From positions 1 through 25,699 of the forward strand of contig DATNHU010000106.1 of NCBI GenBank assembly GCA_035604795.1: a stretch of DNA of 25,699 nucleotides, given 5' to 3'. The position numbers were made by a program, and so were the translations under genes. Origin of the DNA: Candidatus Limnocylindrales bacterium. GTDB lineage: Bacteria > Acidobacteriota > Terriglobia > Acidiferrales > UBA7541. The notes under the pieces were generated by a model, which saw nothing but the letters and a program-made list of their open reading frames with translations, did not search any database and had not been told where the DNA came from. Below, piece after piece: positions 5,665-10,718 of the stretch (positions are counted from its first letter, which is position 1; each line of letters begins with the position of its first letter).

Positions 5665-6807
5665 TTAGTGGGTCGGAGCTTCAGCTCCGCTTTTAAAACA
5701 TGGATCATGCAGTGGTCTTAACCCCGGAATGATTGCGATCCCACGTGACTCGCGCGCGGCGAAGTATCCAGTCTCAGCGAGCAATTCCGCATTCAAAATG
5801 GCCGCGCCCGCGGCGCCGCGAACTAAGTTGTGCGAAAGCAGCACCAGCCGAATATCCATCACATTGCATGCGCGCACGCGGCCTACGGTTACAGCCATGC
5901 CGCCCCCCGCATCGCGGTCGAGCCGCGTTTGCGGACGATCGGGTTCTTCACGAACTTCTATCGGCCGTGCAGGGGCCGAGGGCAACTTGAGGCGTTGCGG
6001 CTCGCCGGTAAATTCACGAAGCACCGCCGCAATGTCCGCGGGCGACGCTTTGTGCCGTAGTTTCAGTGAGACAGCTTCCATGTGGCCGTCAATCACCGGC
6101 ACACGGTGGCATTGAGCGCTGATGCGTATTTCCGTGGGCACAATGGCTCCATCGCGCAACGACCCCAGGATTTTTCGCGGCTCAGCCTCCAATTTTTCCT
6201 CTTCGCCGGAAATGTACGGGATCACGTTGTCCGTCGCGTCGAGTGAGGCAACGCCGGGATAGCCCGCGCCGGAAAGCGCCTGCATGGTGACCACGGATAA
6301 CGCTTCGATTCCAAACGCATCGCGAATCGGCTTGAGCGCAACCACCAGCCCCGCCGCCGAACAATTTGGATTCGTGGCGATGAATCCCGATGTGTAGCCG
6401 CGCCGCTCGCGCTGCACATCCACCAGCGCGCTGTGTTCCGGGTTCACCTCTGGCACCAGCAGCGGCACGTCGGGCGCCAACCTGTGATTGCTGCAGTTGC
6501 TGATCACCGCATATCCCGCGCGGGCAAATGCCTCCTCAACTGGGCCCGCCACCGAGGAATCCAGCGCAGAAAGACAAAAATCGCAATCCAGATTGGCTTC
6601 GAGCGGTTGCACTCGCAGCTCGCCGATTTCCATGGGCATCGGCTCGGCAATCCGCCAGCGCACAACTTCCGCATAGCGCTTTCCCGCGGAGCGCTCCGAA
6701 GCCGCCAGCGCGGTCACGCGAAACCACGGATGCGCGCGCAGGCGATGAATGATTTGCTGCCCGACCGTACCCGTTGCCCCCAACACGCCCACGCGGAAAG
6801 TTTTCAT
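5665..6807 (-). CDS. asd: Aspartate-semialdehyde dehydrogenase (archaeal/eukaryote-like subtype)
   Basis: GVLGATGTVGQ, HPWF...AASERSAGK.Y, catalytic NPNCS, MQALSGAGYPG, RVPVIDGH, SHNLVRGAAG. The ATG overlaps the TGA of the upstream kinase gene (ATGA at 6807-6804). Confidence 0.95.
   Translation of the reverse strand: MKTFRVGVLGATGTVGQQIIHRLRAHPWFRVTALAASERSAGKRYAEVVRWRIAEPMPMEIGELRVQPLEANLDCDFCLSALDSSVAGPVEEAFARAGYAVISNCSNHRLAPDVPLLVPEVNPEHSALVDVQRERRGYTSGFIATNPNCSAAGLVVALKPIRDAFGIEALSVVTMQALSGAGYPGVASLDATDNVIPYISGEEEKLEAEPRKILGSLRDGAIVPTEIRISAQCHRVPVIDGHMEAVSLKLRHKASPADIAAVLREFTGEPQRLKLPSAPARPIEVREEPDRPQTRLDRDAGGGMAVTVGRVRACNVMDIRLVLLSHNLVRGAAGAAILNAELLAETGYFAARESRGIAIIPGLRPLHDPCFKSGAEAPTH
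5668..5689 (+). repeat. REP-like palindrome GTGGGT-CGGAGCT-TC-AGCTCCG
   Basis: Perfect 7-bp inverted repeat (5674-5680 / 5683-5689) preceded by GTGG. It overlaps the last codons of asd. Confidence 0.5.
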
Positions 6808-7805
6808 CGAGCGGCTCTCCGCAGTTCGCTCCTGACTTCATTCCCTGGGGCGGGGCCGATGCGCGTACCGGGATGTTCGGGCCGAAATGTGTTGCGGATG
6901 CGCAAAGCGATATTTTTCTTCCGCAACGGTTCGATGGTCCTGGGGTGAAGTACCTTCGCGCCGCGTTCCGCCAAGTCCAGCGCTTCGTCATAGCTCAACT
7001 CGGTCAGCAGCGTGAATTCCCCGCTATGCTTTTTATCGGTAGAGCGAGGGTCGCGATCGTAAATGCCGTCCACATCGGTCCATAGGCAAACTTCATCAGC
7101 GTCCAGCGCGTCGGCCACAATCGCGGCGGAAAAATCGGAGCTGTTGCGTCCCAGCGTGGTCACTTCTCCGTCGGCCGTCGCGCCAATAAATCCGGTGACG
7201 ACGGGTACGACCCCCTTTTCCAAGAGTGGAAGCAGGATATCTCTTGCTCGCAGGCGGGTTTCTTCCCATATCGGCGTGGCATTCTGAAATTGTTCGTCGG
7301 TAACGATGAATCGTGATGCATCGACCGCCTCTGCCGGAACACCTTCCCACCTCAGCGCGCACGCGACCAATCGTGCGCTGGCGCATTCCCCATAAGAAAG
7401 CACGGCATCAACCCAGGATGCATCTTTGTCTTCGGTTCTCGTTTCGAGAGCCAGCGACCGGAAACACGTGCCGAGATTTTCCAGATCGCTCCAAATTTCC
7501 TGATCTTCGGGACACTCGGTTGTCGCATCGCCGCGGGCCACTCCTTTTTCAGCCGCGCTCAATTCCAGCGCAGCAAGCAATGCTCGGTGACGTGCCCGAA
7601 TCGCCCAAGCCTCATGAACCTCGTGCGCTGAGACGCCATTGCGCGCCAACTCGGTGAGGTGCACGAGCCGGTTCGTGACACCAGCGCACGCAGAGCACAC
7701 CACCACGGTCTGCTCATCGGCCGCAAGCTCGCGCACCAGTCGCGCGACATGAACTATCGCCGCTGCGTCCGCCAGCGATGACCCGCCAAACTTCAAGACC
7801 TGCAT
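6804..7805 (-). CDS. lysC: Aspartate kinase, catalytic domain only (no ACT domains), 333 aa
   Basis: The start was set at ATG 7805, which has a GGAGG RBS. Motifs: VLKFGGSSLAD, VVVCSA..GVTNRL, D.VLSYGE..S, PVVTGFIGAT, TTLGRNSSDFSA, WTDVDGIYDRDPR, LSYDEA.DLAERGAKVLHP. The ORF ends about 17 aa after the PGTRI end of the kinase domain. Confidence 0.9.
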   Translation of the reverse strand: MQVLKFGGSSLADAAAIVHVARLVRELAADEQTVVVCSACAGVTNRLVHLTELARNGVSAHEVHEAWAIRARHRALLAALELSAAEKGVARGDATTECPEDQEIWSDLENLGTCFRSLALETRTEDKDASWVDAVLSYGECASARLVACALRWEGVPAEAVDASRFIVTDEQFQNATPIWEETRLRARDILLPLLEKGVVPVVTGFIGATADGEVTTLGRNSSDFSAAIVADALDADEVCLWTDVDGIYDRDPRSTDKKHSGEFTLLTELSYDEALDLAERGAKVLHPRTIEPLRKKNIALRIRNTFRPEHPGTRIGPAPGNEVRSELRRAAR

Positions 7806-9106
7806 TGCACATCCTCCGAAACCGCCACCGCGCGCGCGAAGAGTTCGTGTTGAGCCGGCGCGGCGTGAAATCCCCCTATAGATTCGAGTTGAGCGCCGTG
7901 TTCGTCCTGGCACAGGAAAAGGACAGTGGGATTTTCTCCGCGCGCAGCCAGCGGCTCCACCAGCAGTCCGGCGATCTCCTCATCGTGCGCACGAACAAAT
8001 GCCAGCGCCGCGGATCCCGATCCGCTCAGGCACACGCCAAGCAATCCCGGATGACGCACCTCGAGACATTCCGCCAACCCCGGTACCGCAGGCACGCGAT
8101 AGGGCTGGTGCAACCGGTCGCGGAAAAATTCCTGCTGCAACGCGTCCAGCACGCCGCTGCCCGAAAAACATCGCGCCGCAAGCAAACTCGCGCGCTGCAA
8201 ATTGTGGACCACGTCCGCGTGCGAATATTCTTGCGGCAACACTGCGCGCGAGGCACGCGTAAGCATCGCCGTGGCCGGCACGATCGCCAGCATCCGCAAC
8301 TCCGGCGGCAATAGCGTCCGCGCGAAAATCACGCCCCCGCCCTCCTGGCTGGCGGCGAACACCAATCCGCCGTGGCAACAGGCGGCGGCATTGTCGGGAT
8401 GGCCCTCAATCTCCGCTGCCAGCGCCAGAATTTCTTCACGGTCCGCGGGTAAGTCAAGCAACGCCGAGCCCAGTAACAGCCCGCAAACCGTTGCCGCAGC
8501 GCTCGACCCCAGCCCCACCCCGACGGGAATCTCACTTTCAATTTCCAGGCGCGCGCCGGAAATTCTTGCGTTCTTCGCCGCGGTGAATCGCAGCATCCCT
8601 TGTGTCACCAGATTGGAAGCATCGTTGGGCACGCGTTCCGCGTTCGGCCCCCGGTAGCTCACCACAAATCCTGTATCGGGCGTAAGCAACGCTCGCGCGC
8701 GCAGCCGCAAATTCAGCGCAATCGCCGCGCAATCGAACGCGCAGCCAAGATTGGCCGAACTCGCGGGCGCCGAAGCTGCCACCCAGCGCGTGTCTGCCGC
8801 CGCGCTGGCCGAGGTTGCGCCGACAGAAGCAGCGCCGCCCGCGATGGAAGGCACCAGCAGCACCACATCGCCATCGCGGAATCTGTACGCGGCCCCGCCG
8901 AGGAAGCGAATGTCCTCATCATTCACATAAATGTTTACGAAGCGGCGCACTTCGCCGCGATCATCTCGGATGTGCCGCGAAATATCCGGAAATTGCGCCC
9001 CGAGTTGGTCGAGCAAATCCGGCAACTCCGCGGCAATCAGTTGCGCGGTCTGAGCGCCGCCCGTGAATTTGCGCAGCGCCGTGGGAATGTGGACGGTGAC
9101 CGGCAT
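7793..9106 (-). CDS. thrB: Fusion protein: MoaD/ThiS-family ubiquitin-like sulfur carrier (aa 1-91, ends IAGG) + Ala/Ser linker + homoserine kinase
   Basis: aa 1-91 (9106-8834) read MPVTVHIPTALRKFTGG...RRFVNIYVNDEDIRF...DGDVVLLVPSIAGG, a MoaD/CysO-type beta-grasp protein. There is no stop codon after GG. The linker AASVGATSASAAADT is followed by the ThrB motifs APASSANLG..FD, IPVGVGLGSSAA, EGHPDNAA, DRLHQPYR and LSGSG. RBS GGGGAGG lies upstream, 3 nt after the thrC-like stop. Confidence 0.9.
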   Translation of the reverse strand: MPVTVHIPTALRKFTGGAQTAQLIAAELPDLLDQLGAQFPDISRHIRDDRGEVRRFVNIYVNDEDIRFLGGAAYRFRDGDVVLLVPSIAGGAASVGATSASAAADTRWVAASAPASSANLGCAFDCAAIALNLRLRARALLTPDTGFVVSYRGPNAERVPNDASNLVTQGMLRFTAAKNARISGARLEIESEIPVGVGLGSSAAATVCGLLLGSALLDLPADREEILALAAEIEGHPDNAAACCHGGLVFAASQEGGGVIFARTLLPPELRMLAIVPATAMLTRASRAVLPQEYSHADVVHNLQRASLLAARCFSGSGVLDALQQEFFRDRLHQPYRVPAVPGLAECLEVRHPGLLGVCLSGSGSAALAFVRAHDEEIAGLLVEPLAARGENPTVLFLCQDEHGAQLESIGGFHAAPAQHELFARAVAVSEDVQCRS

Positions 9107-9109
9107 CGC

Positions 9110-10399
9110 TCACCTCCCCGCCACGGCGTGCTTGCCCGCGGCCGTTGCAGAAGTGAACGCGCCCGCCATCGCGCTCTCGAAATCGGCCAGCCGCGGGGGA
9201 ATCGGCTCGCTCAACTCGAACCGACCCGCGAGCGCGTCCGTCGTCTTCAGGCCATTGCCCGTGTTGCAGATGACCGTCGTATGGTTAGGCGCGATTCGCC
9301 CCTGCTCAATCAACTTCCGCGTGACGCCAAGCGTCACCCCGCCCGCCGTTTCGCCAAAAATCCCCTCGCTTTGCGCCAGCAGCTCGACGGCCTCCACAAT
9401 TTCCGAGTCGCTCACGTCTTCAGCCCATCCGCCGCTCTTCAAAATCGCCGCGCTGGCGTAATTTCCATCGGCGGGGTTTCCAATCGCCAGCGATCGCGCG
9501 ATGGTGTTCGGTTTCTGTGGATCAAACTCCGCCTTCCCATTTTTCACCGCGTCGGAAATCGGTGAGCACCCGGTCGCCTGGCCCCCGAAAAATTTCACTG
9601 ACTTGCCTTCCACCAGCCCCAACTCAGTCAACTCGCGGAACGCCTTGATAATTTTTCCAATCAGCGCCCCGCCGGCCATGGGCACCACCACGTTGTCCGG
9701 CAACCGCCACCCAAGCTGCTCGGCAATTTCGAACCCCACGGTTTTCGATCCCTCAGCGTAGTACGGCCGCAAATTCACATTCACGAATCCCCACGGATAG
9801 GAATCCGCGATCTGGGAGCACAGCCGGTTCACCTGATCGTAGTTCCCCGCGATGCGCACCAGCCGCGCGCCATAAACCTGCGTGTTCAAAATTTTTGCCG
9901 CTTCCAAATCCGCAGGCACAAAGATGCACGCCTGAAATCCTTCGCGCGCCGCCTGCGCCGCCACGGCGTTGGCCAGGTTGCCTGTGGACGAACAGCTCAC
10001 CACCTCATATCCAAATCGCCGCGCCGCCGTCAGCGCCACGGCCACCACGCGGTCCTTGAAGGAAAGCGACGGAAAGCAGACCGCGTCGTTCTTCACGTAA
10101 AGCTCGCTCACGCCCAACTGCTTCGCCAGGCGATTCGCGCGCACCAGCGGCGTGAATCCCACCGGCAAGTCGGAGCGGAAACCTTCCGGCAGCGGCAGCA
10201 ACTCCGCATAGCGCCACAAATTTCCCGCTCGCGCCGCGATGCTTTCGCGGGTTACGCGGCCCTTCAGCGCCGCGTAGTCGTAGGCCACCTCCAGCGGGGA
10301 AAGACATTCCTCGCAATACGACCGCGGAATATTTCCCCAGGTGCGCCCGCACTCCCGGCATCGCAATTGATAATGTTCGCTCACGGCCAGCCTCGGCAT
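9110..10399 (-). CDS. thrC: Threonine-synthase-family PLP enzyme (sulfur-carrier-associated type; candidate O-phosphohomoserine sulfhydrylase, MetM-like)
   Basis: N-terminal CRECG...CEEC, LWRYAELLP, GFTPLV, PLP-lysine motif SLSFKDRVV, SSTGNLANAVAA, VNVNLRPYYAEGSKT, TIARSLAIGNPADG, GIFGETAGG, TGNGLKT. The start is uncertain (ATG 10399 or GTG 10384); the TTG at 10507 lies in the riboswitch leader. Confidence 0.88.
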   Translation of the reverse strand: MPRLAVSEHYQLRCRECGRTWGNIPRSYCEECLSPLEVAYDYAALKGRVTRESIAARAGNLWRYAELLPLPEGFRSDLPVGFTPLVRANRLAKQLGVSELYVKNDAVCFPSLSFKDRVVAVALTAARRFGYEVVSCSSTGNLANAVAAQAAREGFQACIFVPADLEAAKILNTQVYGARLVRIAGNYDQVNRLCSQIADSYPWGFVNVNLRPYYAEGSKTVGFEIAEQLGWRLPDNVVVPMAGGALIGKIIKAFRELTELGLVEGKSVKFFGGQATGCSPISDAVKNGKAEFDPQKPNTIARSLAIGNPADGNYASAAILKSGGWAEDVSDSEIVEAVELLAQSEGIFGETAGGVTLGVTRKLIEQGRIAPNHTTVICNTGNGLKTTDALAGRFELSEPIPPRLADFESAMAGAFTSATAAGKHAVAGR

Positions 10400-10539: not shown

Positions 10540-10659
10540 AAATTCCCATGTCCCCCCGCGACTCGGGGCGGGAATTGGCACCGGATGAAGGGCATTGCAC
10601 CCCACCGGTTGCCGTGGCGTCGTCGGGCCCGTTCCCTCGGCCACTCTGCATGAAAACTC
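10540..10659 (-). ncRNA. SAM-I (S-box) riboswitch
   Basis: The minus strand reads gagttttcATGCAGAG-tggcc-GAGGGAacgGGCCCGAcGAcgcca-CGGCAACC...GGTGCCAATTCC-cgCCCCGagtcgCGGGG-ggaCATGggaattt. This matches the SAM-I layout: P1, J1/2 CAGAG, kink-turn P2, GCAACC/GGUGC P3 core, AAUUCC J3/4, P4. Confidence 0.92.
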
Positions 10660-10689: not shown

Positions 10690-10718
10690 ACCATACGAAA
10701 TGCCGGCGCGCGTGTCAA
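10690..10718 (-). promoter_or_regulatory. Sigma70 promoter of the riboswitch-led operon
   Basis: Minus strand reads TTGACA (10718-10713), a 17-nt spacer, then TATGGT (10695-10690), about 30 nt upstream of the riboswitch P1. Confidence 0.8.

Follow-up and report, generated by a model that had tools for sequence, protein, structure and literature searches.

A MetO-type sulfur carrier fused in frame to homoserine kinase in a SAM-riboswitch operon of Acidobacteriota: a candidate cleavable precursor

Results

A sulfur carrier and homoserine kinase are encoded as one protein

We analysed a 25,699-nucleotide stretch of DNA (hereafter the window: contig DATNHU010000106.1 of assembly GCA_035604795.1) from a soil/peat acidobacterium, deposited as Candidatus Limnocylindrales bacterium and placed by GTDB in the Acidiferrales. 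On its reverse strand lies an operon in which a ubiquitin-like sulfur carrier (MetO) and homoserine kinase (ThrB) form a single protein. The operon runs from a SAM-I (S-adenosylmethionine) riboswitch through a metM-like paralog of the threonine synthase gene thrC, the metO-thrB fusion and an aspartate kinase gene (ask) without ACT domains to asd. Its features are the following:

10690..10718, reverse strand: candidate sigma-70-like promoter ahead of the riboswitch, TTGACA-17-TATGGT (10 of 12 consensus positions agree in a scan; pattern evidence only)
10543..10656, reverse strand: SAM-I riboswitch aptamer, RF00162, operon leader (cmscan)
9110..10384, reverse strand: MetM-like ThrC paralog, 424 residues, with an N-terminal Cys4 zinc ribbon and a pyridoxal phosphate (PLP) enzyme fold (PALP, TIGR00260)
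8834..9106, reverse strand: MetO/CysO-type ubiquitin-like sulfur-carrier domain, fusion residues 1-91 (Pfam ThiS, match to CysO 3dwg_C)
8783..8833, reverse strand: linker, fusion residues 92-108, with the predicted scissile bond between G91 and A92 (low predicted confidence, variable sequence and length)
7793..8782, reverse strand: homoserine kinase (ThrB) domain, fusion residues 109-437 and stop codon (TIGR00191, GHMP motif)
6804..7805, reverse strand: aspartate kinase without ACT domains, 333 residues (AA_kinase 168 bits, asp_kinases 260 bits)
5665..6807, reverse strand: aspartate-semialdehyde dehydrogenase (Asd), last gene of the operon (NF006416 486 bits, TIGR00978 442 bits)

The fusion (7793-9106, reverse strand) is a single unbroken frame of 437 codons, as seen in the open reading frame (ORF) listing and its translation. 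It consists of a ThiS carrier domain (residues 1-91), a linker of 17 residues (92-108, AASVGATSASAAADTRW) and a full ThrB domain (109-437), the first strand of which, right after the linker, reads VAASAPASSANLG. Pfam ThiS (PF02597) matches residues 5-91 with 41 bits (cut-off 22.5) and NCBIfam thrB (TIGR00191) matches residues 112-408 with 215 bits (cut-off 168); Pfam GHMP_kinases_N and GHMP_kinases_C are both matched, and the GHMP phosphate-binding motif PVGVGLGSSAA is intact. The carrier domain terminates in VPSIAGG, with the codons for G90 and G91 at 8839-8834. Frame, translation and profiles thus confirm the initial annotation, made from the letters alone, which had read a carrier ending in VPSIAGG and a ThrB domain in one stop-free frame. 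As encoded, the fusion has 346 residues beyond G91 and hence no free C-terminal Gly-Gly carboxylate; because the frame runs on past G91, any function as a sulfur carrier would require processing. A Shine-Dalgarno site (GGAGG) precedes the ATG of the fusion, and the ask and asd starts have such sites too. Ahead of the kinase part, the sole in-frame start candidate is the GTG at codon 109, where a Shine-Dalgarno site is absent, in line with the earlier claim that the kinase part lacks a ribosome-binding site and start codon of its own.

The fusion recurs in related bacteria with a conserved Gly-Gly and a variable linker

In public runs of other samples, contigs extend across the junction and show neither differences nor indels (X4 over 8600-8988, X5 over 8736-8886), and in the probable source run (X1) a contig covers the junction region at a depth of 14. 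Contigs of independent samples therefore hold neither a stop nor an indel there, and the uninterrupted reading stands.

A search of 5.8 billion proteins recovered 42 further clusters combining ThiS and GHMP kinase, 47-94% identical to the window protein; their named sources are Candidatus Acidoferrales or Acidiferrales, and every one is labelled "homoserine kinase". Four of 151 sampled species genomes of the order have the fusion, namely the window's own genome, G013 (same genus, 94% identical), G006 and G008 (another family), and the fused genes span two GTDB families. IAGG is kept in 42 of the 43 ThrB fusions, and an alignment of 28 of them shows no variation at P86, I88, A89, G90 or G91. 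Mean pairwise identity among the aligned fusions is 96% in PSIAGG, 64% in the carrier core, 59% in the kinase and 26% in the linker, which also differs in length between homologs. Independent fused homologs with a conserved Gly-Gly and a variable linker, which the initial annotation had predicted for a genuine precursor, therefore exist. When compared with the closest relative (L002), the ratio of nonsynonymous to synonymous substitution rates (dN/dS) was 0.063 in the carrier domain, which is under purifying selection, and 0.146 in the kinase.

Carriers of this lineage are mostly encoded with residues beyond Gly-Gly

The best match of the carrier domain among solved structures is Mycobacterium tuberculosis CysO (3dwg_C, from the CysM-CysO complex; E 2e-19), aligned end to end with AGG at both ends. 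Standalone MetO orthologs adjoining MetM or Ask in related genomes are 61-68% identical to the fused carrier and read VPSIAGG followed by short tails, for example APADACG, CPPAA or AAVTA, and the CysO of a close relative terminates in IAGGAGN. All 74 standalone carriers found beside MetM have [VI]PSIAGG; 17 stop there and 57 have 1-24 further residues, so that C-terminal trimming would be the norm, and in this lineage the carrier appears normally to be synthesised as a pro-protein that has to lose its tail. Within this range of tail lengths, the ThrB fusion stands at the extreme. According to GapMind, Mec is needed to mature the MetO of Streptomyces (PMC13759103).

The operon has the hallmarks of the MetM/MetO methionine route

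In Streptomyces albulus, MetM and MetO convert O-phosphohomoserine to homocysteine (Hasebe et al., 2024, Appl Environ Microbiol 90:e0124724, as described in PMC13759103, 10.1101/2024.10.14.618325 and PMC12172450), and a SAM riboswitch lies upstream of metM (PMC12172450). GapMind lists MetO, Mec, MoeZ and MetM as the steps of the pathway and states that MetM is often misannotated as threonine synthase (GapMind 2026, PMC13759103). The window operon bears the hallmarks of this thiocarboxylate route in its gene context. Its aptamer matches the full RF00162 model (positions 1-108) with 73 bits (gathering score 44.4; E 1.4e-15), and a SAM-I riboswitch also lies upstream of the PALP gene in the related loci L002, L005, L006, L008 and L009, whether the fusion is present or absent. 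We set the start of the metM-like gene at GTG 10384 by homolog alignment, the mechanical ORF beginning at TTG 10507; the TTG lies only 36 nt from the aptamer, whereas GTG 10384 leaves ~158 nt for an expression platform. A simple scan found no intrinsic terminator between aptamer and metM.

The MetM-like enzyme scores 220 bits with PALP and 268 bits with thrC TIGR00260, and is 33-36% identical to the other ThrC-family proteins of G000, G013, G007 and G008; at a further locus (L018), the MetM-like gene and a second ThrC-family gene share one operon. We surveyed MetM loci in the best 80 loci of a contig scan, nearly all of which have Acidobacteriota labels and few those of other phyla, with no Streptomyces among them. 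A standalone carrier gene lies directly downstream of the MetM-like gene in 75 of these best 80 related Terriglobia loci. Because a SAM-I riboswitch precedes it and a standalone carrier follows it in those 75 loci, the upstream PLP enzyme is best classed as MetM-type, that is, as a predicted carrier-thiocarboxylate-dependent homocysteine synthase. A plain thrC-thrB-ask-asd threonine operon was considered and rejected on the SAM riboswitch, on the carrier after the ThrC paralog and on the presence of other ThrC paralogs.

The profile matches of ask cover only the catalytic part of the models, and its start overlaps the end of the fusion by 13 nt, with GGAGGA before the ATG at 7805. This ACT-less ask operon may be controlled by the SAM riboswitch alone. 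More distant relatives (L014, L015, L017-L019) have an ask with ACT (467-488 residues). In the near-complete relatives (G013, G006, G008 and G007), the ThrB of the operon is the only match above the thrB cut-off, and the alternative homoserine-kinase families TIGR02535 and TIGR00938 have none above theirs. The only recognisable homoserine kinase of the threonine pathway thus sits behind a SAM riboswitch and, in fused genomes, also behind the carrier domain. MetM as the sole route to homocysteine was not supported, as each genome has two to three PLP enzymes of Cys/Met metabolism (PF01053); metX and metA were not searched for.

The same carrier is fused to other enzymes

Other architectures were searched for with residues 1-100 of the fusion as the query, restricting matches to long proteins. 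Two further partners were found. In the carrier-Ask fusions (P0122-P0126), a carrier 79-83% identical to the query is joined to an ACT-less aspartate kinase, with the junction ...VPSIAGGAPETVRVMKFGGSS. At locus L020 (708-4258), the operon comprises a riboswitch-type MetM, such a MetO-Ask fusion (401 residues) and Asd, and thrB is absent from it; this layout resembles a MetO-ThrB-Ask arrangement from which the ThrB part has been deleted in frame. In the carrier-MoeZ fusions, widespread in Acidobacteriota (P0127-P0212; ~85 clusters of ~483 residues from several acidobacterial classes), the partner is a ThiF-type activating enzyme (E1) with a rhodanese domain. At one such locus, from Chloracidobacterium (L022, 4630-7452), cysM and a JAMM gene precede the fusion, the JAMM gene directly adjoining it. 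PSIAGG at residues 86-91 is retained in 91 of 91 Ask and MoeZ fusions, and Gly-Gly in 133 of 134 fused proteins overall (ThrB, Ask and MoeZ). Since adenylation of a carrier that is joined to its own E1 requires a cut, the MoeZ fusions provide an independent argument that Gly-Gly fusions are processed.

The window's own genome and all relatives checked also encode MoaD-MoaE fusions (frames of 240-256 residues), a second Gly-Gly fusion requiring cleavage in the same organisms. Sites of MoaD-MoaE include contig C309 of the own genome (G000:C309:565-795), L005:4351-5064 and G013:C67:119062-119292.

Near-complete relatives encode the putative maturation machinery

In G013 (the same as G001; 94% identical), one cluster comprises genes for a cysM-like PLP enzyme, a JAMM protein (159 residues), a cysO carrier (108 residues) and moeZ (ThiF plus rhodanese, 398 residues), and a second JAMM gene lies elsewhere. 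The catalytic motif of the cluster JAMM is intact (E32, H92-S-H94...S102..D105). Each of the five near-complete relatives encodes two or more JAMM proteins, one of them beside CysO, together with a MoeZ-type E1 with rhodanese. A protease dedicated to the fusion was rejected as a candidate, given that fused and unfused genomes alike carry the cysO-cluster JAMM and a second JAMM. An E1-like gene of the window's own genome (L001) was also rejected as a MoeZ ortholog, being 32% identical and without a rhodanese domain.

AlphaFold2 (run with the 28-sequence alignment) predicted two confident domains, with a predicted local distance difference test (pLDDT) score of ~90 and a confident carrier fold over residues 1-87; residues 88-105 and the tail (416-437) are predicted to be disordered (pLDDT <50). 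We also modelled a relative's fusion (P0003) with zinc and the cluster JAMM. The interface score (ipSAE, interaction prediction score from aligned errors) was 0.49 versus 0.00 for the best control, a result that counts as weak support: of 80 solved complexes 55 attained the ipSAE mark, as did 3 of 110 mismatched pairs, and passes at or below 0.60 are often wrong. In the model, residues 8-14, 41-65, 83 and 85-94 of the fusion face the catalytic residues of the JAMM protein. This model is consistent with cleavage and is no evidence on its own.

The carrier domain has been lost repeatedly by in-frame deletion

In a tree of the kinase domain, fused and unfused proteins are intermixed, with 12 state changes, at least seven of which are forced by well-supported branches. 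Many unfused kinases start with what is left of the carrier's first strand, followed directly by the end of the linker, as in the following (remnant, then the adjoining residues):

P0057: MPVTVHIPAARRKLTDG, then WATASAP
P0067: MPSTVHVPTSPRKDTDE, then WVGASAP
P0028: MSATAHIP, then WVIASAP
P0083: MPVTVK, then ASAP
P0104: MSVT, then EIEVRVPATS (fused sisters adjoin P0104)

These starts show that the carrier has been lost repeatedly, through in-frame deletions that retained the original start codon, as one would predict for a kinase that lacks its own start. In carrier-less genomes, MetM abuts ThrB with no space for a carrier gene, and no other MetO is present. Adjacent separate metO and thrB genes, as a direct ancestor of the fusion would have them, were found in none of the 151 sampled genomes of the order. 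The fusion probably arose through loss of the stop codon in a metO that already bore a removable C-terminal tail, and would have been tolerated because the tail is cut off anyway.

Discussion

The best explanation of these data, and probably the right one, is that the fusion is a precursor of two proteins of the same pathway, which a Mec-type JAMM/MPN+ zinc protease cuts after G91. Proteases of this class trim capped carriers and release the amino acid from carrier adducts; here the cut would fall between G91 and A92, and a MoeZ-type E1 with rhodanese would then adenylate and thiocarboxylate the freed MetO. The released ThrB would make O-phosphohomoserine, and MetM would join thiocarboxylated MetO and O-phosphohomoserine to yield homocysteine. 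The initial annotation had likewise proposed a precursor cut at Gly-Gly that co-produces carrier and kinase; the conservation of Gly-Gly and the JAMM and MoeZ genes of relatives support it, while the cleavage after G91 is a step that we infer.

That last circumstance is one of several points that weigh against a cleaved precursor. No JAMM, CysO or MoeZ gene was found in the window's own genome, but at 56% completeness of this metagenome-assembled genome (MAG) their absence counts for little; the expected pairing of the fusion with JAMM and MoeZ genes is seen in the 94%-identical genome of the same genus. The second JAMM gene and the cysO cluster are equally present in genomes without the fusion. 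One fused cluster (P0019, a single 1.7-kb Logan contig) reads VPSIAGT, with Gly-Gly broken, which could reflect either an error of sequencing or decay of the carrier domain. Close relatives without the carrier domain or any other MetO still keep MetM and the riboswitch; the carrier domain thus appears dispensable in some backgrounds, and MetM can apparently work without the fused domain, perhaps with CysO or sulfide, one of which presumably substitutes in carrier-less genomes. The likeness to the S. albulus system was established from descriptions and gene context, not from sequence identity, and the score of the JAMM complex may reflect memory of solved JAMM complexes with ubiquitin-like proteins (Ubl).

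These carrier-less relatives, with their retained riboswitch-MetM-ThrB order, are also what favours an uncut fusion, in which the Ubl domain is a docking or regulatory module rather than a sulfur carrier. It could for instance tether ThrB to MetM or MoeZ and steer O-phosphohomoserine to methionine, with sulfur taken from CysO, which the same genomes encode, or from free sulfide; a partitioning device of this kind makes sense where the sole recognisable ThrB serves both threonine and methionine. Docking nevertheless leaves unexplained why a near-invariant PSIAGG stands beside an unconstrained linker, and the domain is orthologous to standalone carriers that terminate at or just past Gly-Gly. 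The same domain has moreover kept Gly-Gly on three unrelated partners, and the Gly-Gly region is predicted to be disordered, not packed on the kinase. We regard docking as less well supported than cleavage, and as unlikely. Very unlikely, in our judgement, is that two products arise by translation, the kinase from the internal GTG at codon 109 and the full-length fusion as a minor or non-functional by-product. This GTG does lie just before the first strand of the kinase, and many close homologs have W-V there. Codon 109 however lacks a Shine-Dalgarno site, which each of the starts of the fusion, ask and asd possesses; among deeper fused homologs no start codon is conserved at that place, and the carrier frame would still be stop-free and the carrier still blocked. 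The lineages that lost the carrier also kept the original start, as if it were the only start of the kinase.

The source MAG is fragmented, and frameshifted neighbour genes occur in some related long-read MAGs, both of which could be taken to favour an artefact, that is, a sequencing or assembly error, or else a recent and functionless loss of the stop codon. Contigs of other samples are identical over the junction, 43 clusters retain the fusion down to 47% identity, and the dN/dS of the carrier domain is 0.06; we thus rejected this possibility, which we hold to be exceedingly improbable. A further proposal goes beyond precursor cleavage: release by JAMM, or docking of the precursor on MetM, might form a regulated checkpoint that splits O-phosphohomoserine between threonine and methionine. 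We consider this quite unlikely; if true, the checkpoint would be a bacterial counterpart of ubiquitin-fusion genes, serving metabolic control.

What is already known comprises the MetM/MetO pathway (2024) and JAMM-processed MoaD-MoaE fusions. With the S. albulus MetM/MetO system, the window operon shares a SAM riboswitch followed by a ThrC homolog, a neighbouring carrier of the ThiS/MoaD type ending in Gly-Gly, a predicted need for Mec-type carrier maturation and for a MoeZ-type E1, and a homoserine kinase that supplies the substrate. It differs in that the carrier forms the N-terminal 91 residues of ThrB and has no separate gene, that ACT-less ask and asd are added to the operon, and that Mec and MoeZ are encoded elsewhere and seen only in relatives. 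The cysO cluster of G013 has the gene content of the M. tuberculosis CysO-CysM-Mec-MoeZ system (3DWG), from which the closest solved homolog of the carrier comes; mycobacterial MoeZR serves both molybdenum cofactor and cysteine biosynthesis (PMC3227635).

M. tuberculosis MoaX must be cleaved to be active (PMC4326299), and the Deinococcus radiodurans protease DRJAMM cuts the natural MoaD-MoaE fusion DR2607, leaving a C-terminal Gly (PMC8832034). Like these, the carrier-ThrB fusion has an N-terminal ubiquitin-like carrier on an enzyme, a Gly-Gly junction, and a carboxylate that only a cut would free. MoaE, however, binds the carrier directly and forms a complex with it after cleavage, whereas neither ThrB nor Ask is known to bind a carrier: unlike MoaE, ThrB is an upstream kinase that only makes the co-substrate for a third enzyme. 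In CysO and HcyS, as would be the case here, JAMM proteases remove residues beyond Gly-Gly, but the known caps are one to a few residues long, and here linker and enzyme amount to 346. The capped carrier HcyS-Ala of Wolinella is trimmed by HcyD. Eukaryotic ubiquitin is made fused to the ribosomal proteins L40 or S27a and is cut off by deubiquitinases. In both the ubiquitin and the carrier-ThrB fusions, a ubiquitin fold stands in frame with an unrelated protein, with release after Gly-Gly and 1:1 co-production, which for the carrier-ThrB fusion are predicted; they differ in domain of life, protease families and purpose (tagging vs sulfur transfer), and the likeness is one of analogy, not homology.

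The carrier-ThrB fusion itself appears to be new. Iyer et al. 2006 (PMC1779556) list ThiS-ThiG, MoaD-MoaE, carrier-ThiF and carrier-sulfite reductase fusions, with no homoserine kinase among them, and full-text literature searches of a limited library found no paper describing a carrier-ThrB fusion, which agrees with the initial annotation, where no described MoaD-ThrB fusion was known.

If cleavage is confirmed, polyprotein processing by JAMM proteases, in bacteria so far a matter of MoaD-MoaE, would extend to enzymes that do not bind the carrier, and the MetM/MetO methionine route would acquire a naturally occurring variant in which a maturation step is built in. More broadly, the data suggest a rule for this lineage, in which most Terriglobia MetO carriers are encoded with residues past Gly-Gly and the same carrier occurs on ThrB, Ask and MoeZ; since the tail is cut off in any case, whichever gene follows metO can apparently be joined to it. 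For assays of bacterial JAMM proteases, the fusion moreover offers a natural substrate that is ready to use. As these proteins are named only "homoserine kinase", and MetM "threonine synthase", pathway reconstruction misses both the methionine route and the carrier, an annotation gap that concerns abundant soil and peat bacteria.

Additional observations

The C-terminal tail of the fusion (residues ~426-437; 7793-7830, reverse strand), which ends ...SEDVQCRS, is kept in close homologs though predicted to be disordered, probably because its codons hold the ask Shine-Dalgarno site (GGAGGA) and the overlapping ask ATG. In related MAGs, several neighbouring genes are split or joined: PALP occurs in two pieces, the C-terminus of PALP is joined to ThrB (P0100), and asd is divided into 50 and 324 residues (L008:6725-7995, L009:1828-4034 and L003:12285-13427). 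These are probably frameshift errors of assembly and not true architectures.

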